Of a DNA stretch of 12,056 bases, positions 878 through 12,056 are shown in pieces. The notes beneath the pieces are model-generated. The model saw only the letters and a program-made list of their open reading frames with translations, had not been told where the DNA came from and made no database searches. This DNA is from Promethearchaeia archaeon (GTDB lineage: Archaea > Asgardarchaeota > Lokiarchaeia > Sigyniarchaeales > SOKP01): the NCBI GenBank assembly GCA_029856155.1, contig JAHQWL010000003.1, forward strand, positions 1 to 12,056, given 5' to 3'. Position numbers and translations under genes: made by a program. The stretch's first letter is position 1. The number at the start of each line of letters is the position of its first letter.

Positions 878-1453
878 ATGGATCTTCAACTTCCAAAGCC
901 GATATTAAAAGGTAGTAAAAGTCTGGAAGAATGTATCTACGAACGGGAAAGTGTTAGAAGTTATAAAGAGAAAGTAATTGAGATAGAAGAGATTTCACAG
1001 ATTTTATGGGCAATCCAAGGGAAAAAAGGGATTAAAAGAACAGTTCCGAGCGCAGGGGCCACTTATCCTTTAGAAATTTATGTTACTATAAAAAATGAGG
1101 GTTATTTTTATTATAATTACAGTAAGCATGTTTTAGAATGTATTACAGATAAAGATTTAAGTAATAAGCTTGTTGAAGCTTCATGGAATCAACATTTTAT
1201 TGCTGAGGCATATCTTAATGTAATAATTTGTGCTATTTTCGAAAGGACAATTGAAAGATATGGTCAACGGGGAGTTAGATATGTTTATATTGAAGTAGGT
1301 CATTGTGCTCAAAATGTTCATTTAGAAGCTGTAGCCTTAGGTCTATGCTCAGTTCCTATAGGAGCATTTGAAGACGATAAAGTTAAGGAAGTACTAAAAC
1401 TCAAAAAACAAATTGAACCTCTATATATTATTCCAATTGGACATCCAAAATGA
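878..1453 (+). CDS. SagB/ThcOx-family FMN-dependent dehydrogenase (nitroreductase fold)
   Basis: Motifs SLEECIYERESVRSY, LWAIQG, RTVPSAGATYPLEIY, RYGQRGVRYVYIEVGHCAQN and LGLCSVPIGAF are typical of the family. Confidence 0.92.
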   Translation: MDLQLPKPILKGSKSLEECIYERESVRSYKEKVIEIEEISQILWAIQGKKGIKRTVPSAGATYPLEIYVTIKNEGYFYYNYSKHVLECITDKDLSNKLVEASWNQHFIAEAYLNVIICAIFERTIERYGQRGVRYVYIEVGHCAQNVHLEAVALGLCSVPIGAFEDDKVKEVLKLKKQIEPLYIIPIGHPK

Positions 1454-1463
1454 AGTAAACGTT

Positions 1464-2012
1464 TTAATACTCTCCTTGAGCTTCAAATTCAGCTCTCTCT
1501 ATAGAAAAATACATAGTTTTAGATGGAATATCTTTAATTGGCACATGACCCATATATTTCATTCCTACTCTTTCAGCTACTTTCCACGCTCGTGAGTTTG
1601 TAGAACGGATAAATGCGATAATTCCTGTTAAAGTTGGTTCTTCAAACGCATATTCTATAAGTTTTTTCATCGCTTCTATAGCAAAACCATGACCTCTATA
1701 CTCAGGTCGCACCAAGTAGAAACACTGTGCCTTCTTACCATTTTCTGAAGATAACAACCCACACAATCCAATATAATTTCCACTTTCTTTATTTATGACT
1801 ATTAATACGATTACAGGGTTGATTGAGTTATAAGAATCTATAATAGAATTGAATATTTGCTGTGAGTTATTATCTAATTTCATCTTCAAAATGAATTTCA
1901 AGTTATTATCAGCAGTAGCATCTTTTATAATATCCGAAAAAACCTCAAAATCATCTCGGTTCATTAGCCTTAGAATAAGTCTTTTACTCACAATTTTTTT
2001 AGGAAGATTCAT
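1464..2012 (-). CDS. GNAT family N-acetyltransferase, RimJ/RimL type (about 182 aa)
   Basis: SKRLILR near the N-terminus, acetyl-CoA motif PEYRGHGFAIEA, and NSRAWKVAERVGM. Start moved from 2171 to the ATG at 2012 (MNLPKKIVSKRLILR), which matches the usual family N-terminus and removes the overlap with the divergent CPBP gene. Confidence 0.88.
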   Translation of the reverse strand: MNLPKKIVSKRLILRLMNRDDFEVFSDIIKDATADNNLKFILKMKLDNNSQQIFNSIIDSYNSINPVIVLIVINKESGNYIGLCGLLSSENGKKAQCFYLVRPEYRGHGFAIEAMKKLIEYAFEEPTLTGIIAFIRSTNSRAWKVAERVGMKYMGHVPIKDIPSKTMYFSIERAEFEAQGEY

Positions 2013-2063
2013 CTGACTATTGTGACTTATAAGATATACGTTATTAAGTTTTAAAGTTGTATT

Positions 2064-2075
2064 ATTATATATAAT
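2064..2075. promoter_or_regulatory. Palindromic TATA-like element between the divergent GNAT and CPBP genes
   Basis: ATTATATATAAT is self-complementary, about 35 nt before the CPBP ATG (2110) and about 52 nt before the GNAT ATG (2012). Weak evidence in such AT-rich DNA. Confidence 0.3.
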
Positions 2076-2109
2076 TTCCATTAAATCACGAACAATCAAA
2101 ATTACATTA

Positions 2110-2919
2110 ATGTCATACGACGAGAATCTTGTAAAAAACAGGATAAAAAACAGTTTAATATATAATTCCATAATTTTCTTGATTTTTGTATTTTGGTTTT
2201 TTTACTCTTCGTTTGATAACATTTTAATTTTATTTCTGATATGTCTACTAATTTTTTTAGTAGTTTTTGTTAAATTTATTACAGAAGTAAGATCTGGATT
2301 TACCGTAGAACAAAAAATTTTATACATACTGCTTTTTTTAATACCATTTGCTTTATTTGGGGATGCTATCTTATTTTATAACACTTCAATTACATTCTTT
2401 ATCCCATTTAGTAATTTAGTAGGTATAAAGCATAATCATAATATTATTCTATTTTTATTCTATTTCTCGATAATCTTGTTAAAATTAGTCGGGATTAAGG
2501 TTTATTTCTCAAAAAATGTTAAATTCCTTCAAGAAGGAAGAGGAGATGAAATATTTCAATTTTTTACGAAGAATATTACATATAAAAAAGTAATACTTTT
2601 AGTGATTCTCTTTCCACTGGTAGCTTTTATTGAGGAATTGATTTATAGAACACTTCTCATTAGTATTTTAACGTATTATCTTAATTTGGACTATATACTA
2701 AGTATCATTTTAATTTCAATTATTTTTGGATTAGTACATTATTCAACTTCGCAAAATTGGGGGCATGTAATTTCCACACTTATATCTTCTATAATCTATT
2801 CCCTTGCTTTAATTCAATTAGGTATTATATATCCATGGATATTCCATTTATCAACTAATTTATTTGTATTATTGTTTTATTATCAAGGAAGAAAAAAATA
2901 TTATTCAGAAATGAAATGA
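2110..2919 (+). CDS. CPBP family intramembrane glutamic endopeptidase (CAAX protease/Abi, Rce1-like)
   Basis: Multi-TM protein with EELIYR (EExxxR), FGLVH (FxxxH) and HLSTN (HxxxN) motifs. Confidence 0.9.
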   Translation: MSYDENLVKNRIKNSLIYNSIIFLIFVFWFFYSSFDNILILFLICLLIFLVVFVKFITEVRSGFTVEQKILYILLFLIPFALFGDAILFYNTSITFFIPFSNLVGIKHNHNIILFLFYFSIILLKLVGIKVYFSKNVKFLQEGRGDEIFQFFTKNITYKKVILLVILFPLVAFIEELIYRTLLISILTYYLNLDYILSIILISIIFGLVHYSTSQNWGHVISTLISSIIYSLALIQLGIIYPWIFHLSTNLFVLLFYYQGRKKYYSEMK

Positions 2920-2994
2920 TAATTAATTGAAATAATATGATTAGATCTTGAATAACCTAACAAATTTTTTAAACTAATTATCAGAAGTGATATT

Positions 2995-3639
2995 ATGACT
3001 AAAAAAATACTAATTTTGACTGGCGATTTTGTTGATGATTATGAATTAATGGTACCTTATTCTGTTCTTACTATGTTTGGATGTGAAGTTAAAATAATTT
3101 GTCCTGGCAGGGGAAAGGGTGAATTTGTTAAAACTGCTATTCATTACATTTCTATAGAAGATTGGGAGTTAGCTTTAAAGAGAAAACCTATCACATATTC
3201 AGAATCACTTGGACATCCTTTTAGATTAAATGATGATTTCGATTGGGAAAATGTAGAAAAAGAAGTAGTTAATTATGATGGGTTAATTATTCCAGGTGGG
3301 AGAGCTCCAGAATATCTATCTCTAGTTCCTGAGGTTCAAAAACTAGTTTCCCATTTTATGGAGAATAATAAGCCTATTGGAGCAATTTGCCATGGTCCTC
3401 AAGTTCTAGCCTATAGTGATGCTGCTTTAACAAAAATAGACTATTTAAAAGATAAAAAAATATATCCATATCCGTCTGTTGCTCTGGAGTGTTCTTTACA
3501 AGGAGCAATAATAGAGGATGATTACCCTGCCAACATTGCTTATACCCATGACAATCTAGTAACAGCTCCATCTTGGGACGCATTGCCGGAATTTATGAAA
3601 CAATTTCTTAATCTTCTGAATTTAAAAACATTACCCTAA
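2995..3639 (+). CDS. DJ-1/PfpI family protein (glyoxalase III/deglycase/protease-like)
   Basis: KKILILTGDFVDDYE (catalytic Glu), YDGLIIPGGRAPEYL, and AICHGP (nucleophilic Cys followed by His). Confidence 0.93.
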   Translation: MTKKILILTGDFVDDYELMVPYSVLTMFGCEVKIICPGRGKGEFVKTAIHYISIEDWELALKRKPITYSESLGHPFRLNDDFDWENVEKEVVNYDGLIIPGGRAPEYLSLVPEVQKLVSHFMENNKPIGAICHGPQVLAYSDAALTKIDYLKDKKIYPYPSVALECSLQGAIIEDDYPANIAYTHDNLVTAPSWDALPEFMKQFLNLLNLKTLP

Positions 3640-3660
3640 TGAATAGTAAAGATTAAAAAA

Positions 3661-4476
3661 ATGAAAATAGACTTTCGAGAAGCTAAGAGTATTATAACAA
3701 AGAGTAATATTCCATCAATCGATTATGTAATAAATCCATATACTGGGTGTCAACATGGTTGCATTTATTGTTATGCTGAATTTATGATAAGATTTACAGG
3801 TCATAAAGGAGATAAATGGGGTCAGTTTTTAGATATAAAAACTTTTAATTTGAATAAAGTAAAACCTCAGAAATACAATGGAAAAACAATTCTGTTAAGT
3901 TCAGTAACAGATCCATACTTACCCTTAGAAAAGAAGTATCAAAATACAAGGAAGATATTGGAAAAGCTAGTTGGAACTGAAGCTGAAATCTCAATTCTCA
4001 CAAAATCGAAATTAGTTGTTCGAGATATTGACCTATTTAAAAAGTTTAAAAATGTTAATGTTGGTATCTCAATTAGTACTTTAGATGAGAATTTTGCAAA
4101 GATTATTGAACGAGCGGCATCAAAACCTTTAGATCGATTAGACGCTATTAAACAAATTTCTGAAGCGGGTATTGAAACATATACATTTATATCACCCTTT
4201 TTTCCAGAAATTACGAATTTTAAAGCAATTATTGAAGAGAGTAGAGAATATTCAAATCGTTTCATGTTTGAAAATTTGAATTTTAGACCTCATAACGTGC
4301 CTAGAATAATAAAAGTAATAAAAGAATATTATCCAGAATTGGTTTCTAAATATAAAGAAATCCAAAAAGATCAAGGTTATTGGGATATTCTTGAGAGTGA
4401 GATTGAGAATTATTGCGAAAAAAAGAATCTTATTTATGATATTGAATTTCACCATGGAGGATTTTCAAAAAGCTAA
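3661..4476 (+). CDS. Radical SAM protein, spore photoproduct lyase-like family
   Basis: INPYTGCQHGCIYCYA (CxxxCxxC), SSVTDPY and ILTKS motifs. Confidence 0.9.
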   Translation: MKIDFREAKSIITKSNIPSIDYVINPYTGCQHGCIYCYAEFMIRFTGHKGDKWGQFLDIKTFNLNKVKPQKYNGKTILLSSVTDPYLPLEKKYQNTRKILEKLVGTEAEISILTKSKLVVRDIDLFKKFKNVNVGISISTLDENFAKIIERAASKPLDRLDAIKQISEAGIETYTFISPFFPEITNFKAIIEESREYSNRFMFENLNFRPHNVPRIIKVIKEYYPELVSKYKEIQKDQGYWDILESEIENYCEKKNLIYDIEFHHGGFSKS

Positions 4477-4539: not shown

Positions 4540-5853
4540 ATGCCCGAAGATTACCAGATTGCTTTAAACAAATTAAAAAGAATTTTACCCTTTGTTAATT
4601 CAGTTGCATTAGTGGATGGAAGAGGCGAATTAGTTTATTCAACAGATAATTGGAATATAAAAGAAGATATAGTTGATCTAATATCTCTCTGGTCGTCTAT
4701 GAAACGTCAACCTATTATGATTTCTGGAAAAAAATATTTAATACGTACTTGTACAAGTGATAGATTTGTAGCAAGCTCACCTAAAGGAGAAGGCCATATT
4801 GTAGGTGCTAATGACGATGAAAGGACAATTATAACTCTTATTGAACCAGATGGGATTATTCCTTTTACTACTATGGAGATAACTAGAATTTTAGCTTCAT
4901 TAAAAGAAAAAGAACCTTACTTGGATGAGAGTATACAATTAGGAAAGAACATCAAATTAATGAAAGATGGATCCTCTCATAGTGAAAAAGTAAAGCAAAA
5001 TAAACTTGATAAAGATATATTGCCAAACCAAAAACAAAAAGAGCCAAAGCTAGATCTACCTTTCACAGCTCGCCTTATGGCTTATTATCGAGCTCAAGAG
5101 TCTAAACGTGATGATGCTCTTATAATAGATCCTTTCGCAGAGCGCCTTGCGGGTAATTTGGGTTCATACTTGAGTGATCATATACGTTTCTCTGAAATGG
5201 ATTATCCGCTCGTGCGTTCATATTACATTGAAAAAAATTTGTTAACGCCTTGGTGTAATAAACAAAAAGATTCACAAATAGTTCTTTTAGGAGCAGGATT
5301 AGACACACGTGCATACCGATTCAAACCCGAACATAAAAATAAACACACTCTCTTCGAGATCGATTTTCCAGAAGTGATTCAATATAAAAATGAAATTTTA
5401 AAAAATGAAAAACCTTTTTGTAATCTTGTGCGCTTATCTGCTGACCTTTCCAAACATAATTGGTTACCCTTTTTAATAAATAGCAAATTTTCTACAAAGA
5501 CCCCTACTTTTTGGGTATTAGAAGGCATTGCTTATTATATTGAAAAACAAGATTTTACCTCTTTACTCTTTAAAATAGCCGAGATAAGTACTAAACACAG
5601 TCAAATTTTCATTGATATCATGCAATTATCAAGATGGTACTCTTTTCCTTATACTTCAGATGGAATTGTAGGAGACCCCTTCTCAAAGCATTTTAAATGG
5701 GGTATTGATATTAACTCTGCTCAATCGCTTTTTGCTGAATTTGGTTGGAATGTGACCTGTTCTTTCGCTGATGATCATGATCAAGGTAGAAATGTAGGGC
5801 AGAAAGGGATGATTTTTGTTCATGGAGAGAGGGCTTCCACTATGTTTTTTTAA
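4540..5853 (+). CDS. Fusion of an N-terminal Asgard profilin-like domain (aa ~1-121) and a C-terminal SAM-dependent methyltransferase of the leucine carboxyl methyltransferase (LCM)/TIGR00027 type (aa ~173-437)
   Basis: MTase: TARLMAYYRAQES, DPFAERLAG, QIVLLGAGLDTRAYR, FEIDFP, ADL and EGIAYY. N-terminus: VALVDGRGELVYSTDNWNI, ISGKKYLI and GEGHIVGA resemble Loki profilins. The domains are joined by a Lys/Gln/Pro-rich linker. Confidence 0.85.
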   Translation: MPEDYQIALNKLKRILPFVNSVALVDGRGELVYSTDNWNIKEDIVDLISLWSSMKRQPIMISGKKYLIRTCTSDRFVASSPKGEGHIVGANDDERTIITLIEPDGIIPFTTMEITRILASLKEKEPYLDESIQLGKNIKLMKDGSSHSEKVKQNKLDKDILPNQKQKEPKLDLPFTARLMAYYRAQESKRDDALIIDPFAERLAGNLGSYLSDHIRFSEMDYPLVRSYYIEKNLLTPWCNKQKDSQIVLLGAGLDTRAYRFKPEHKNKHTLFEIDFPEVIQYKNEILKNEKPFCNLVRLSADLSKHNWLPFLINSKFSTKTPTFWVLEGIAYYIEKQDFTSLLFKIAEISTKHSQIFIDIMQLSRWYSFPYTSDGIVGDPFSKHFKWGIDINSAQSLFAEFGWNVTCSFADDHDQGRNVGQKGMIFVHGERASTMFF

Positions 5854-5949: not shown

Positions 5950-6597
5950 ATGCCAAGCGGCGTAATTTCTCACCAAGCACCAGGATTAGCATTAAAAATT
6001 AAATATCCAAGTAGGTTTGATGGAACAGCTCTATGTCTCAGTACCTTAGTTCCTGATTTAAATGTGCTGGTTGATCCCTTTATACCATTTTCATTCAGAG
6101 ATTTTACTCATAGTTTATTAGGATTAATAATTTATACTATACCTTTAACGATAATATTAACAATTATTTTTTGTAGAAATATTAGTCCATTTGTGGCTAA
6201 GATTGCGAAAAGAGAAAATGTAATATATAAACCCTTGAAATATTTTGGCGTAGATGAATGGGATAACTTTAAGAAAAAAAAATACAATAAGAGATATTTT
6301 ATTGTTGCGTCTTATTCAGCTCTTATTGGGGGTTTAACACATCTTTTACTCGATCTTCCTGCACATGAATATGTACAGTTGTTTTTTCCAATAATATTAC
6401 AAAATCCCGATTTTTTATTATACTCTATTATAGATTTTGGCCCTATTACTATTGGTTCGATGCAAATTGAACGTAATTTAACAGTCTATCAACTTATATG
6501 GATGGTTGAAACCTTAATTACATTTGTCATAGCTCTTTATCTTCTTAGATATATTAAGAAACGCAATTTAATAAGCAAATGGTATACAGAAACATGA
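5950..6597 (+). CDS. DUF4184-like membrane protein (YdjM-like putative metal-dependent hydrolase)
   Basis: MPxxxISH N-terminus, PDL, FTHS and THLLLD motifs with hydrophobic TM segments. Confidence 0.75.
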   Translation: MPSGVISHQAPGLALKIKYPSRFDGTALCLSTLVPDLNVLVDPFIPFSFRDFTHSLLGLIIYTIPLTIILTIIFCRNISPFVAKIAKRENVIYKPLKYFGVDEWDNFKKKKYNKRYFIVASYSALIGGLTHLLLDLPAHEYVQLFFPIILQNPDFLLYSIIDFGPITIGSMQIERNLTVYQLIWMVETLITFVIALYLLRYIKKRNLISKWYTET

Positions 6598-6664
6598 AAA
6601 AAACTTAATAAGGATTTATTAAATCATCAAAGCAAATAAAATAAACAATTTTATACTCAACGAT

Positions 6665-6674
6665 AAAAAAAAAA
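6665..6674 (-). terminator. Archaeal oligo-T terminator candidate
   Basis: T10 on the minus strand about 15 nt after the NosD-type gene stop at 6690. Confidence 0.4.
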
Positions 6675-6689
6675 GGCTCTAATGAGCCA

Positions 6690-8205
6690 TTAATATTCAA
6701 ATGTAAATGTTCTATTGAGGACAAGTTCAGTATACATATCATAATTATAGAATCCAAGTATCCACTGATAAAAATGGTCTCCTTCTGGAAGTCCCGCATT
6801 ACGTAAGTAATCAGGTGGTAATATTATATAGAAGTATTCGATATAACCAGGCTCATCATATGCTACTTCATCAAAGTACCAAAAATTGCCTTGACAGGAA
6901 TAATCTACTCCATAAAACCTAAATATTGCTGTATAAGGAGGACAAAATTCACGGTATGTTCTTTCTGAAAATAATTGTTTCATTCCTATCATAATATAAC
7001 ATGTCTCATCAGAGCGTATCGTAGCGAATCCTCTTAACCAATTAGAATCGGGATCTAAAGTTACTTCTATTAATTCTTGTTCTAAAGCATTTAGAATTTC
7101 CCAACCGCTCTTTTCCATGAATGGATAAGCATCATATCCTATGAAAGGCCATGGAGAATCTCCTAAACCGTCTTCATTATCATCTGTACCAGTGTAATCT
7201 GACCAGTAATTTCCTTCAAGCATGTAGGGATTGTACCATTCATTCATCCAATATTGCGCGTCCCATGCTTGTAGATCGTTGCTAATAAGATTATTATGAT
7301 AGATACGATTATAATCACAATCTACATCAAGCCCAATGCCATAAGTATTGTGTTTGATTGTATTTCTAACAATCTCATTATTATCAACATTAGCCAAATA
7401 AATTCCATTAACATTTCTTGCAATTGTATTTCCGTAAATAAGGTTGTCTTCCGCACCAAAGTAATACCAATCGACAATTGCAATACCCGTTAGATCATTT
7501 CTTCTACAAAAATTCTCAAATATACTATTACCAAAGGATGAACCTACCACAATCCCTGTATCAGAGTTTCTTGTACAAAGATTCTTGGATACCATATTAT
7601 AGTTGGAATCAAGCCAAACCATTATCCCCCATGTATTATCTCTGCAAGAATTTCTAGTTATAATATTGTCACTGGATCCTTCAAGATATATTCCTGGTCC
7701 TGCATTTCCATTACAGAGATTTTGTTTTATTTCATTATTGTATGAATACATTAATGCTATACCAGAACCCTGTCCCGAGTCTGGCCACCCATTATTAAGA
7801 AATTTATTATTAAGAATGACGCCATTGGATGTGCTGACTAATATAAGTCCTGCATTTCTCACCCCCGGCGGGGGTCTAGTATTATATAAAATGCAATTCT
7901 TTATTTCAAAGGATACATAGGAGTTCATGATCATTATACAAAAAAATGACTCCTCGCCATTAATTGCTACATTCTTTATTATATAAGGATCTTCTTCCGT
8001 ACCAGACCCTTTACACCAAGGTTCTAAAGCTGCTTCCTCCCAAGTGTAATCTCCAGAATTCCAATCATCTATAATTATAGGATCAAGAGTCCAACGTTTC
8101 GGTCTACATCCAACTACAGCTACCACTGGAAGAGTAAATGTAATTGTAAGCATAATTGCCAAAAGACTTATCTTAATAGTTTTTTTTTGCGTTTTTTCTC
8201 ACCAT
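6690..8205 (-). CDS. Secreted NosD/CASH-type right-handed parallel beta-helix protein; the probable true start (ATG 8205) is out of frame by one base
   Basis: GSGTEEDPYII motif, ~22-24 aa N-x-I-x-x-N...GI repeats, IYHNNL and GNYWSDYTGTDDNEDGLGD. The in-frame ORF is 6690..8162 (TTG start) with an in-frame TGA at 8199-8201. Removing one A from the A6 (8192-8197) or A9 (8180-8188) tract joins ATG 8205 and gives a complete signal peptide. Confidence 0.85.
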
Positions 8206-8223
8206 TATTTTTTTTAAGATTTC

Positions 8224-8241
8224 TTGATCAATATTGATCAA
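8224..8241. promoter_or_regulatory. Perfect 18-bp palindrome, candidate operator
   Basis: TTGATCAATATTGATCAA starts 19 nt upstream of ATG 8205 (minus strand) and lies downstream of a minus-strand TTTATA at about 8262-8267. Confidence 0.55.
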
Positions 8242-8591
8242 AGTTTGGATATTTCAATTTGTATAAAAAGAATATGTTGAATATAAGCAGTAAGTTCAGG
8301 AAAAATATTAGTAAAACATATATTTTAGTTGTAAAAATTTACGAATTACTAGCAAAATTAGAATAACTAATCATTTTTAATATAATCGATTCATAAGAAA
8401 TAATTATTAGTTTTTTGCAGTTCTAATTAGCAAATTTAACTATTTTCTTTTTATTTTACAAAATAGGGTTAAAGCTTATAGAAAAATTTCATACATGCGC
8501 TTTTCCTTCTGATATGTACCATTTTTTCTTCTTTTTCTAAAATATTTTAGGTCAATGAAGATTTTAAACACATGAAGTAAAAGTGAACGAT

Positions 8592-9566
8592 ATGTCAAAT
8601 ATTAATAAAAAGCAGGAAATAATTGCCTATATCTTATTAATCTTAACTATGGTTATTTGGGGAGGTACTTGGCCAATAGGGCGGTGGTTAGTATCTGAAA
8701 AAGTAGGAGGTGCAACAATCCCACCATTCATGATAGCAGTCATCCGTTATTTTTTAGCGATAATTTGTTTCTTTTTCATTCTTAAATTTAAAGAAGGAAG
8801 TTTAAATTGGCAATTTGCTAAGGAAAATTGGAAGATCTTAGTGATAATGGGTTTTTTATCTGTTACAATTTATCAAGCAGGTTATCTTTTAGGTGAAATT
8901 TTCACTGCTGCAAGTGATGCCAGTATAATGGTCGCAACAAATGCTATTTGGGTTGTAATTCTTTCCAGCATTTTCTTAAAAACAGAATTCTTTAGTTGGA
9001 AAAAAGCTGGTGGAACTTTTTTAGCATTCATAGCGGTCATCCTTGTTGTAGGGTTTTCTCCAAATGTAGATGTTTTGAATCGATTTCTTGGAGATATTTT
9101 AATATTGGCAGCCGCGCTTGCTTATGCTACATATACTGTCATTTCACGCTATTTTTTGAACAAGACTAAAAGCGAAACTGAATCATATCAACCAAGCTCC
9201 ATATGGATAATGACATGGGTATCTTTTTTTGGATTTTTAATAACCACACCAATAGCCTTAATTATCAGCCCAGAATATTTTAACCCTCTTAGTTACCTTT
9301 CAATTCCTCCCCGAGTATGGTTAGGAATTGCATATTTAGCATTTTTATCAACAATAGGAGCATATACATTTTATTTAGAGGGTGTAAAACGTTTGGATGC
9401 TAGCAGAGCGGCAATTTTTCAAACATTAGTTCCTTTATTTGGTGTATTGTTTTCTGCGATATTCCTTCACGAAAATTTTGATGTTTTCATTTACCCTATT
9501 TCTTTATTACTAGTTATATTGGGAATAACTCTTGTAAATCTAAGAAAAAATAAGAAAGTGGATTAA
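8592..9566 (+). CDS. DMT superfamily (EamA-like) transporter
   Basis: About 10 TM segments, IWGGTW, PF...AVIRY, GDILILAAALAYATY and GVKRLDASRAAIF..LVP. ATG 8592 preferred over GTG 8583; TTTAAA lies at 8563-8568. Confidence 0.92.
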   Translation: MSNINKKQEIIAYILLILTMVIWGGTWPIGRWLVSEKVGGATIPPFMIAVIRYFLAIICFFFILKFKEGSLNWQFAKENWKILVIMGFLSVTIYQAGYLLGEIFTAASDASIMVATNAIWVVILSSIFLKTEFFSWKKAGGTFLAFIAVILVVGFSPNVDVLNRFLGDILILAAALAYATYTVISRYFLNKTKSETESYQPSSIWIMTWVSFFGFLITTPIALIISPEYFNPLSYLSIPPRVWLGIAYLAFLSTIGAYTFYLEGVKRLDASRAAIFQTLVPLFGVLFSAIFLHENFDVFIYPISLLLVILGITLVNLRKNKKVD

Positions 9567-9630
9567 TTTTCGATCCTAGAGACAAATTCTATAATTAGCT
9601 CATAATTTCAATAAAATATCAACTATATGT

Positions 9631-9638
9631 TTTTATAT
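9631..9638 (+). promoter_or_regulatory. TATA box candidate for the J-domain gene (possibly leaderless mRNA)
   Basis: TTTTATAT ends about 26 nt before the ATG at 9665, which fits archaeal spacing. Confidence 0.4.
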
Positions 9639-9664
9639 CCGAATTTTATTCTATTAAGTAGAAG

Positions 9665-10012
9665 ATGAATGAGAATAAGGATTATTATGAGCTTTTAGGG
9701 ATTGAAAAAGATTCTACAGAAGAGGAAATTAAATTAGCATATAGAAAATTAGCTAAAAAATATCATCCTGATGTTAATAAAACAGATCCTAAAGCTAAAG
9801 AGAAATTTATTGAAATAAAGGAAGCTTATGAAACCTTAATTGATCCTATAAAACGTGGAATCTATGATCAGCCTATATATAATCCTCAGAACCCAGATTG
9901 GAGTGATCTGTTTAGAACTTCTGATTTTAGAACTTTTATAGAAATAATGAGACGAATATATAGAAATTCAAATCCGTCTTATAAACCTCCTCCTGAAGGA
10001 ATGTATGTATAA
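9665..10012 (+). CDS. Small J-domain (DnaJ class III) protein
   Basis: DYYELLGI...[20 protein letters not shown]...[12 protein letters not shown] with an intact HPD motif. No G/F-rich region, Zn finger or CTD; a ~45 aa tail ends in PPPEGMYV. Confidence 0.92.
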
Positions 10013-10159
10013 TAGTTTCAATTCTCCTTTTATTTGGTTAATATCTAAAAGAATTGTTTGGATTAATTTAGATTATAAATTATATAAATTTAAGACTTCA
10101 TTATTTCATATAAATATTAAGTCTGATAATTATGATTTCATTTTAGATCAGGTTATATT

Positions 10160-10429
10160 ATGGTTGATTCCTCAAAATCCAACTCAGCTAATATGATAAA
10201 ATCTGAATATAATAAGAGATTAAAGGAATTAGAATCCAAATTAGCATTAAAACATAAAGAATTGAAACAAATTGAAAATGCATTTATTCATGACACAAAG
10301 AAGATTGATCATTCAAATGTTGGTAAATTAAAATCTAAAAAAGCACAAGTTAATTCAGAAATATTACTGTTAATAAAACAGATTAAAAAAGTCAGTAAGG
10401 AAAAGCTTAGAAAACTTAAAAAATTATAA
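10160..10429 (+). CDS. Hypothetical Lys-rich coiled-coil protein, 89 aa
   Basis: ATG ORF with heptad-like Leu/Ile periodicity in two long helices. No family recognised. Confidence 0.65.
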   Translation: MVDSSKSNSANMIKSEYNKRLKELESKLALKHKELKQIENAFIHDTKKIDHSNVGKLKSKKAQVNSEILLLIKQIKKVSKEKLRKLKKL

Positions 10430-10519: not shown

Positions 10520-10658
10520 GTTAAATTATTATCTAATCTGTTAGGGCTCGTTTTTTCATAAATATATAGATTACTGCTATTACTGCAACACCTGCGACTA
10601 TAGACACTACAACAATAACTACAATCACTGTTGGATCTACTCCACCAGAGGGAATACT

Positions 10659-11207
10659 TTTAGTTATTGTTATTTCTTCAAATGAAAGGTTTCCTAAAGT
10701 ATCATTAGCATAGAATGTAATTGTGATTGAGCCTTCAGGCAAAGATGCCCATGTAGTATGATCAATAGTTGCATTTAAAGTAATTGTAAAATTGTTTACA
10801 CCGCCATCAAGGGAATACCAGATTGAATCTAAATGATCGTCTGTGACTATAATTATGAATCCAGGTGCATTGACTCCAAACTCACTTCCGGAAGAAGGTG
10901 ATTCAATTACGATAATTGGTCCAGTAGCATCTTTTTCAATACTAACTTCAGCAGATCCAATATTTCCTGGTTTATCAGAAGCATAAAATGTTAATGTAAT
11001 TATGCCATCAGTCATTGCATTCCATACAGATTGATCTATAATTCCAGTAAATTTTGTAAATGTGTAATTGTTTAATCCACCATCAAGTGTATACCACATC
11101 TCAAATAGATATGTCTCAGTTATGGTTAAACTGAAAGCTGGAGCATTTTTAACAAATAAATCATTATTACTAGGTGAATTAATTGTGACTAATGGTTCTT
11201 CATCATC
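10659..11207 (-). repeat. Two tandem ~92-aa Ig-like domains (protein-level repeat)
   Basis: P-x-x-x-I-x-SP...NAPxF...WY(T/S)LDGG.NN(Y/F)T...ID...W.....G.IT(L/I)TFYA.D..GN occurs twice. Confidence 0.8.
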
Positions 11208-11399
11208 AGCTATAGGAAAATGATCTATGCTTCCTGCAGAACCTCCTATATATGTATATGGAGTATCCACGATTCCATATGGGGCGTCGTTATCTGGACC
11301 TGTGTGATTGTCCCAGTAATTACCAATTGTTGTACGATTCCATTGGTTGTTCCATCATCAATCGCATGTTTCGCATTTTTTCGAAAGAAATTTAAATAA

Positions 11400-12056
11400 A
11401 ATGAGTTATAACTCCCCGAGTTTACTTCTATACCAATAGTATTATTATCTAAGACATTTTCAGTAAAATAATTATAATCACAACCTTCTACAAAATTTAT
11501 CCCAGTATCTCCGTTATTTTGTATTTTATTTCCTAAAATTGTGTTATTTTCGCATCCTGATTCTAATTCTATACCATGATAAACATTATTGTTAATTGTA
11601 TTTCCCAAAATTGTGTTATTATAACAATTCAAGAAAAGAAAAATCCCATATTCATTATTATTTATAGTATTTTCTGAGATTGTATTGAAACTAGAACCTT
11701 CTTCTATTTGTATTCCTTCATAGTTATAATTAACAACATTTTCTGAGATAGTATTATCATTGGATTCATCACCTAACACCATTCCATATTCGTTATTATC
11801 GATATTATTTCTTGAAATCGTATTATTATTACAAAACAAATTGAAATCTATTCCATAATCGCCATTATTATTTACATCATTTTCTGAGATTATATTATAG
11901 TCACAATCCTCCAAATATATTCCATCAATTTCATTATTGTTTATTATGTTTTCGGTGATAATATTATAGTCACAATCAAAATATATCCACATCCCATCGT
12001 GATTACCGCTTATGTTGTTTTCTGCGATAATGTTGTTCTCACAATCAGTGTCAAAA
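11400..12056 (-). repeat. Coding tandem repeats (66-72 nt) of parallel beta-helix coils
   Basis: ATATTATAGTCACAATC at 11892-11908 and 11961-11977 (69 nt apart); AAAATTGTGTTATT at 11535-11548 and 11607-11620 (72 nt apart). The spacing matches 22-24 aa protein repeats. Confidence 0.8.

Follow-up and report, generated by a model that had tools for sequence, protein, structure and literature searches.

A Lokiarchaeial Profilin-Fold Domain Tethered to an LCM-Family Carboxyl Methyltransferase

The 12,056-nucleotide stretch of DNA analyzed here (the window), which comes from contig JAHQWL010000003.1 of a 4.1-Mb, 97% complete genome (GCA_029856155.1), encodes a protein in which an N-terminal profilin-fold domain is joined by a disordered linker to a SAM-dependent methyltransferase of the LCM family (Table 1). 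On balance, this protein is probably a carboxyl methyltransferase that has kept its ancestral substrate, likely a small acid, and carries a flexibly tethered profilin docking module localizing or gating the enzyme. Asgard profilins have been described as small stand-alone actin regulators, and profilin is normally an actin-monomer binder. The profilin-methyltransferase fusion appears to be undescribed so far, as an earlier reading of this DNA made from the sequence alone had supposed: the literature searched contained no description of this or any other profilin fusion (the subscription papers of Akil & Robinson 2018 and Ponlachantra et al. 2023 may mention multidomain profilins), and N-terminal extensions are the only additions considered in a published survey covering 256 Asgard profilins. 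The architecture, in which the domain of a eukaryotic signature protein (ESP) has been combined with one of prokaryotic type within a narrow lineage, resembles the lineage-restricted multidomain Asgard ESPs that Liu et al. (bioRxiv 2020.10.19.343400) present as a typical pattern, in passages that do not mention profilin fusions.

The open reading frame is free of internal stops, and the division proposed by the sequence-only reading into an N-terminal domain of ∼120 aa, a hydrophilic linker, and a complete LCM/TIGR00027-type methyltransferase with an intact LGAGLDTR motif was recovered in full. The whole protein was modeled with AlphaFold2 (mean pLDDT, 75); the model runs from a profilin topology through a disordered segment (residues 124 to 171, pLDDT below 50) to the methyltransferase, and the polypeptide stops 5 residues past the enzyme core. 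The start of the linker contains a P-Y-x-D...LG motif that is also found in the 205-aa extended profilins and in the profilin-TrmB fusions, while the linker length differs between fused homologues. The same reading had proposed checking whether the sequence data span the linker and whether other Asgard genomes encode this architecture. The domain join is covered by assembled contigs from four studies, including a single contig from run X1 that spans the entire fusion gene and contigs from three further studies that run from the profilin into the linker or the enzyme, and the fusion is not a singleton, as 71 fused homologues were found. A chimeric assembly is thereby ruled out. At positions 5329 to 5331 of the window, the codon GAA (Glu264) is replaced by TTT (Phe) in the contigs of all four runs; the few further single differences, among them those at positions 5454, 5456, and 4911, are likewise common to the runs and do not affect the frame. 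These base differences may represent strain variation or an assembly difference. A promoter and terminator scan gave results at chance level.

Table 1. Features of the profilin-methyltransferase fusion gene (positions refer to the window)
Feature	Position	Strand	Basis
Whole ORF, 437 aa: profilin-fold domain, linker, and LCM/TIGR00027 carboxyl methyltransferase	4540..5853	+	ORF call, Pfam/TIGR00027, AlphaFold2 model, spanning contigs
Profilin-fold domain, aa 1-121; Lokiarchaeial "extended profilin" paralogue clade, without Loki-loop	4540..4902	+	Sequence, fold, domain tree
One strand (aa 65-70) of the three-strand motif for actin binding, remodeled; corresponds to human K69/S71/I73/R74	4732..4749	+	Alignment; PMC9975505, PMC8410842
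Family-specific conserved patch, IEPDGIIPF to Glu113, start of last helix (human V118-E129 actin-contact region)	4840..4878	+	Family alignment
Lys/Glu-rich disordered linker, aa 122-171	4903..5052	+	pLDDT <50 in model
LCM-family class I SAM-dependent carboxyl methyltransferase, OPCMT-like, aa 172-432	5053..5835	+	Pfam, TIGR00027, structure comparison
Thr176, equivalent of ML2640c Thr20 (carboxylate binding)	5065..5067	+	Alignment; PMC10193983; 96-100% conserved
SAM-binding motif I, LLGAGLDTR, aa 249-257	5284..5310	+	Sequence
Tyr333, equivalent of ML2640c Tyr194 (carboxylate binding), in E-G-x-x-Y-Y motif	5536..5538	+	Alignment; PMC10193983; 100% conserved

Both sequence and structure identify the N-terminal domain as a profilin. 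The best phmmer match of residues 1 to 121 was the Odin profilin 5ZZA (E value, 1.7e-9), followed by the Loki profilins 5ZZB and 5YED (about 9e-5) and the Thor profilin 7PBH (0.004), and the family profile matched profilin with an E value of 2.4e-10. Pfam entry PF00235 gave no match to the fusion and scores only 25 bits even for the canonical profilin of the same genome. Foldseek aligned the model with 5ZZA at a TM score of 0.86 and 1.6 Å; structure comparison with VIA returned Z scores of 17.0 to 17.6 for Loki and Odin profilins (17.5 for the Odin profilin) and 14.5 to 14.7 for those of yeast and Acanthamoeba, with superposition on the Odin and Loki structures at 1.6 to 1.9 Å over 116 to 123 residues. 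The model has the seven-stranded sheet, terminal helices, and three-strand insert after a short central helix that mark the profilin fold, with DSSP placing the helix at residues 44 to 53 and the strands at 59 to 61, 64 to 71, and 75 to 79. This helix-plus-three-strand layout distinguishes profilin from roadblock/LC7 domains, which have a long central dimerization helix instead (PMC10933270). The roadblock, GAF, and PAS folds, considered as alternatives in the sequence-only reading, are thus ruled out by the topology and the profilin sequence matches; no chain of these three types was among the fold matches listed, the lists being dominated by the methyltransferase.

That reading had also recognized a Loki profilin pattern and expected a Loki profilin as the top hit. 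The profilin part of this proposal was borne out by sequence and by fold, but the Odin protein is the closest by sequence and the Loki-loop insertion is absent, as is the N-terminal extension. The domain accordingly differs from the Loki profilin-1/-2 orthologous group, whose members carry the Loki-loop, are stand-alone 136-aa proteins, and share a clade; their true orthologue in this genome is a different gene (G000:C28). Seven ORFs of this genome are profilin-like: two are fusions (to the methyltransferase and to TrmB), two are extended forms of 211 and 231 aa, two are small and divergent, and one is the canonical Loki profilin. In a domain tree built from 140 columns, in which many forks are unresolved, the methyltransferase-fused profilins form one group (support, 81), a wider clade (support, 96) joins them with the extended profilins and with TrmB, Sir2, and Ras fusions, and the biochemically tested Loki profilins constitute a separate clade. 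The fusion shares the fold, sequence homology, and three-strand actin-binding motif of the studied Asgard profilins (Odin 5ZZA, Loki profilin-1 5YED/5YEE, Loki profilin-2 5ZZB, and Thor 7PBH) but differs in that its profilin is tethered to an enzyme and belongs to another paralogue clade than the tested Loki profilins.

The C-terminal part is recognized by TIGR00027 (residues 176 to 408, 138.6 bits, cutoff 93.55) and by Pfam LCM (PF04072; E value, 2e-31; 109.7 bits, cutoff 22.3). Its closest solved structures in VIA comparisons are ML2640c (Z score, 27.2; 28% identity) and Rv0731c (25.2; 24% identity), both of which were shown biochemically to methyl-esterify small carboxylic acids (Lin et al., PMC10193983). 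Similarity to the OPCMT-like enzymes (ML2640c, 2UYQ; Rv0731c, 6ID6; MnMT4; TIGR00027) extends to the N-terminal helical subdomain, formed by helices at residues 175 to 241 before the Rossmann core (the 2UYQ alignment spans residues 173 to 432), to the Thr/Tyr pair, and to the SAM-binding residues. In ML2640c, Thr20 and Tyr194 bind the carboxylate, and the SAM contacts include Arg28, Arg90, Gly115, Asp135, Asp164, Glu189, and Gly190 (PMC10193983); the equivalents in the fusion are T176, Y333, R184, R226, G253, D275, D302, E328, and G329, which are 92 to 100% conserved across the fused family. Differences include Gly/Ala in place of Ala113/Ser114 of ML2640c (LGAG versus LASG in motif I), the tethered extra domain (the described OPCMT-like proteins are single modules of ∼300 aa), and placement in a separate Asgard clade with its own invariant residues. 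With all catalytic and SAM-binding residues present, the protein can be predicted, from its sequence, to be very probably an active carboxyl methyltransferase. However, the structure-based identity to ML2640c falls just below the 30% that serves as a working boundary of OPCMT-like enzymes (PMC10193983), even though the family residues are present, so that the substrate class is an extrapolation.

The sequence-only reading had pointed to LCMT1/Ppm1 as the eukaryotic relative. This analogy is the weaker one: LCMT1 is further off (Z score, 23.1; 18% identity), Ppm1 and TYW4 also rank behind ML2640c and Rv0731c, the sequence match to LCMT1/Ppm1 has an E value of 1.2e-10 versus 2.6e-20 for ML2640c, and the motif after strand 4 is of the bacterial E-G-x-x-Y-Y type rather than the E-C-x-x-x-Y of LCMT1/Ppm1. 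What the fusion has in common with LCMT1/Ppm1 and TYW4/Ppm2 is the LCM fold (Z scores, 20 to 23) and presumed carboxyl-methylating chemistry, at 13 to 18% identity. TYW4 likewise combines LCM with an extra domain, but that domain is a C-terminal Kelch propeller, which is absent from the fusion. No ORF with a PP2A-like YFL C-terminal tail was found in this genome, and an ESM Atlas search with the full protein retrieved only stand-alone bacterial LCM clusters, at 0.79.

Close relatives of the enzyme (about 56 to 62% identity) are present in proteins labeled as thor-, hod-, hermod-, odin-, heimdall-, and borrarchaeal. Outside the profilin fusions, the enzyme of this clade is either stand-alone or joined to a conserved 150-aa helical domain, which can be located at its N- or C-terminal end and is found almost only beside it. 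In the enzyme tree (a quick method with a midpoint root), the profilin fusions form one branch (SH-aLRT, 99) of 71 fused rows plus 7 split, partial, or truncated ones, nested among the stand-alone and helical-domain forms. Of 261 enzyme columns, 72 are at least 90% identical in profilin-fused and helical-domain-fused members alike, and only four columns, none of them catalytic, differ consistently between the two. Since the core is the same with or without profilin, the substrate probably did not change when the profilin was gained. Given the conserved core and the stand-alone or helical-domain-tethered state of the other members, the profilin looks like a swapped-in accessory: the enzyme would predate the fusion, with the profilin occupying an exchangeable slot.

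The helical domain itself (as in the fusions L025:1492-2835, minus strand, P0143, P0144, and about 40 relatives) is all-helical, with the motifs ISPRLLRDPL and EEEAH..GYLKAIL, and was modeled at a pLDDT of 90. It has no Pfam family, and fold searches gave no Foldseek match at an E value of 0.001, a best VIA Z score of 7.0, and Atlas TM scores below 0.4. One genome from the family of the window has a tandem arrangement (L049, G275:C354) in which the gene after a helical-domain-fused methyltransferase encodes another LCM methyltransferase, more distantly related. A highly conserved, uncharacterized Asgard-wide methyltransferase clade with a dedicated partner domain has thus come to light.

Tested Asgard profilins bind actin (PMC8410842, PMC13716822) and respond to phosphoinositides, and those of the Loki/Odin type do not bind polyproline (PMC8410842). 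Actin contacts were mapped onto the fusion from published lists (PMC9975505, PMC1964790) through the equivalence of human K69 and Odin K58 (PMC8410842) and the G121-E129 spacing. The mapped positions were placed by motif alignment rather than by coordinates, and structural glycines are among them. Their conservation exceeds that of the remaining domain (0.72 versus 0.56; resampling P value, 0.003), which argues that this face matters. It is nevertheless remodeled. K65 is kept in 60% of the fusions versus 100% of the extended and canonical profilins, for which the sampling was narrower. In the K-Y strand, where tested profilins have S/M, I/V, and acidic-or-Arg positions, Ser/Met at position 67 has given way to variable aliphatic residues, Leu/Val/Ile at position 69 (human Ile73 equivalent) to Arg in 90% of the family, and position 70 is free to vary; at the beginning of the last helix, a hydrophobic GIIPF sequence is new. 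Residues S80, H86, G105, and the acidic E113 are retained, as in the tested profilins. Lokiactin is 96 to 100% identical across the family, so compensating changes in actin are unlikely; judged from the alignments, the remodeled face would fit either an altered mode of actin binding or a new partner. Complex prediction for the profilin domain with its own methyltransferase domain (score, 0.00; mark, 0.32) gave no answer either way.

The reading that accommodates these observations best is that an active SAM-dependent carboxyl methyltransferase of the Asgard-wide LCM/OPCMT-like clade acquired, in a single lokiarchaeial ancestor, a domain from the "extended profilin" paralogue, as the trees and architectures show, in the accessory slot that in its relatives holds the helical domain or nothing. 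It would act on the same carboxylate as the relatives that lack profilin; a small organic acid is the most likely candidate, a peptide end is possible, and actin would not be the substrate. The flexibly linked profilin would serve for docking, its actin-type face holding a conserved partner and thereby positioning or gating the enzyme; this partner may about equally well be a new protein or still Lokiactin, in a changed binding mode. The likeness to ML2640c/Rv0731c, the constant core, purifying selection on the profilin, its conserved actin face, and the TrmB, Sir2, and Ras sister fusions all speak for this reading. On the other side, the gene neighborhoods point to no pathway, a core that is constant across Asgard archaea would also fit a conserved protein substrate (the HRCF end of Lokiactin is invariant in the class), and the existence of split and profilin-less copies shows that the tether can be lost.

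The distribution of the fusion bears on a rather unlikely alternative, namely that a chance-fused profilin copy lends expression signals or solubility, has no binding role, and is slowly decaying. When the N-terminal domain was used as a query, 24 proteins were retrieved, every one of which contained the LCM domain, including 22 full-length ones besides the window's own cluster; further searches raised the fused enzyme rows to 71. The fused homologues, labeled Promethearchaeota or Lokiarchaeia, belong to Lokiarchaeia genomes from three families of the class. Of 400 genomes of the phylum, 16 had a full-length match (one with an internal stop) and one more had a split copy, all in the window's class: 14 of the 135 genomes of its family and members of two other families. 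In contrast, among 50 genomes sampled from that family, Lokiactin and canonical profilin were each present in 47 and the extended profilin of 205 aa in 45; even though the genomes are incomplete, this contrast marks the fusion as an accessory gene. Such a patchy distribution, the existence of split, frameshifted, and profilin-less copies (one of the latter), and the faster evolution of the profilin (44% mean identity versus 59% for the enzyme) would suit a passenger. However, the domain has been kept in all these sequences under purifying selection (dN/dS, 0.29 to 0.40, versus 0.18 to 0.30 for the enzyme), the split copies keep the profilin ORF directly upstream, and the family-specific residues R69, E102, D104, I107, and E113 on the presumed binding face are near-invariant.

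Slightly more doubtful is the proposal that the profilin fold has given up protein binding and controls the enzyme as a sensor for a membrane lipid or other small ligand. Roadblock/longin-type folds, which are related to profilin, act as adaptable input modules, and the domain heads several outputs (TrmB winged helix, Sir2, and methyltransferase) in the layout of a one-component regulator. The GIIPF patch and Arg69, which are unlike those of all actin-tested profilins, and the phosphoinositide response mentioned above could be seen in the same light. Yet the conserved positions lie on the protein-binding face of profilins, the lysines proposed to bind phospholipids are weakened (K65 as noted; Leu/Phe at the position of Loki K71), and the long floppy linker would fit tethering better than allosteric coupling. 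The targeting or sensing role offered by the sequence-only reading stays plausible, and its cytoskeleton-directed protein methylation module becomes a minority view, with the same core occurring without profilin across Asgard classes, a domain that is not orthologous to the tested Loki profilins, and several actin-contact positions changed.

The profilin site on actin adjoins the actin C terminus, and LCMT1 methylates the Leu309 carboxylate of PP2A. Least likely of all, despite a genuine profilin fold, actin binding by the tested homologues, a Lokiactin C terminus (HRCF) that is invariant in the class, an Arg69 that could replace human Arg74 at the actin C-terminal carboxylate, and a sister profilin-TrmB fusion adjoining a second actin in this genome, is that the profilin captures monomeric Lokiactin for methyl-esterification of its C-terminal Phe carboxylate by the tethered enzyme, tuning actin dynamics: the enzyme resembles ML2640c in type and not LCMT1/Ppm1, its core was unaltered by profilin gain, the fusion is far rarer than Lokiactin and canonical profilin, no actin gene was recognized in the neighborhoods of 41 loci, and second actins occur in 3 of 8 fusion carriers versus about 17 of 61 genomes overall, which is no signal.

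Irrespective of the partner, one lokiarchaeial profilin paralogue emerges as a reusable module that is attached to small GTPases, a sirtuin, and transcription regulators as well as to the methyltransferase. Provided that actin binding has been retained, such fusions would couple transcription, methylation, and deacylation to the state of the cytoskeleton in the archaea most closely related to eukaryotes; otherwise, a eukaryotic-signature fold has been rewired, which cautions against calling every Asgard profilin match cytoskeletal. Were actin itself methylated, this would be a dedicated prokaryotic actin-modifying enzyme among profilin-headed outputs (methyltransferase, Sir2, TrmB, and Ras) that read the actin monomer pool.

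The related profilin genes deserve brief description. In this genome, the profilin-TrmB fusion lies in one same-strand run (L002:646-3209, G000:C26) with a 97-aa ORF and the second actin, which shares 85% identity with Lokiactin. A profilin-Sir2 fusion (L191:2758-6227, P0039) is accompanied by another Sir2 gene and by a gene for a 494-aa protein without recognized identity; the three form a block that interrupts the S3 to L22 part of a ribosomal protein cluster, in the reverse orientation. Candidate fusions with a C-terminal extended-group profilin involve GTPases of the Ras family and an OB-like domain of a proteasomal ATPase (P0033, P0042, P0110, and P0106), P0033 coming from a single 1.5-kb contig. 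The 211-aa and 231-aa profilins (L003:1501-2136, plus strand, and L004:1150-1845, minus strand) contain a low-complexity linker and a common C-terminal helical domain. The 205- to 211-aa extended profilin, which appears to be uncharacterized, keeps Odin-like actin-face residues.

The 41 neighborhoods showed synteny at the genus level only and no shared pathway. Rce1-like genes (CAAX protease family) are located near the fusion within the genus (window:2110-2919, plus strand) and, in one distant genome, immediately downstream (L193:7259-8002, plus strand), probably by chance. A CAAX-type pathway was not adopted, as no relationship between the two genes could be detected and ∼8 motif matches occur in this genome. 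Other neighbors in the window (878-4476 and 5950-10429) were assigned by Pfam to DJ-1/PfpI, radical SAM (SPL-like), DUF4184, and NosD beta-helix families and, by eye, to a SagB-type nitroreductase, a GNAT acetyltransferase, a DMT-type transporter, and a DnaJ-domain protein. A NosD-like beta-helix ORF (10533-12055, minus strand) leaves the window and shares an overlap with the beginning of another ORF, whose 245-aa product ends in a membrane anchor; the two are possibly one frameshifted surface protein. One member of the fused family (L194, P0123) comes from GCA_035531115.1, which bears the bacterial name "Candidatus Deferrimicrobium sp." at NCBI; its gene layout matches that of genome G124 from the window's class, so that the label is probably an error.
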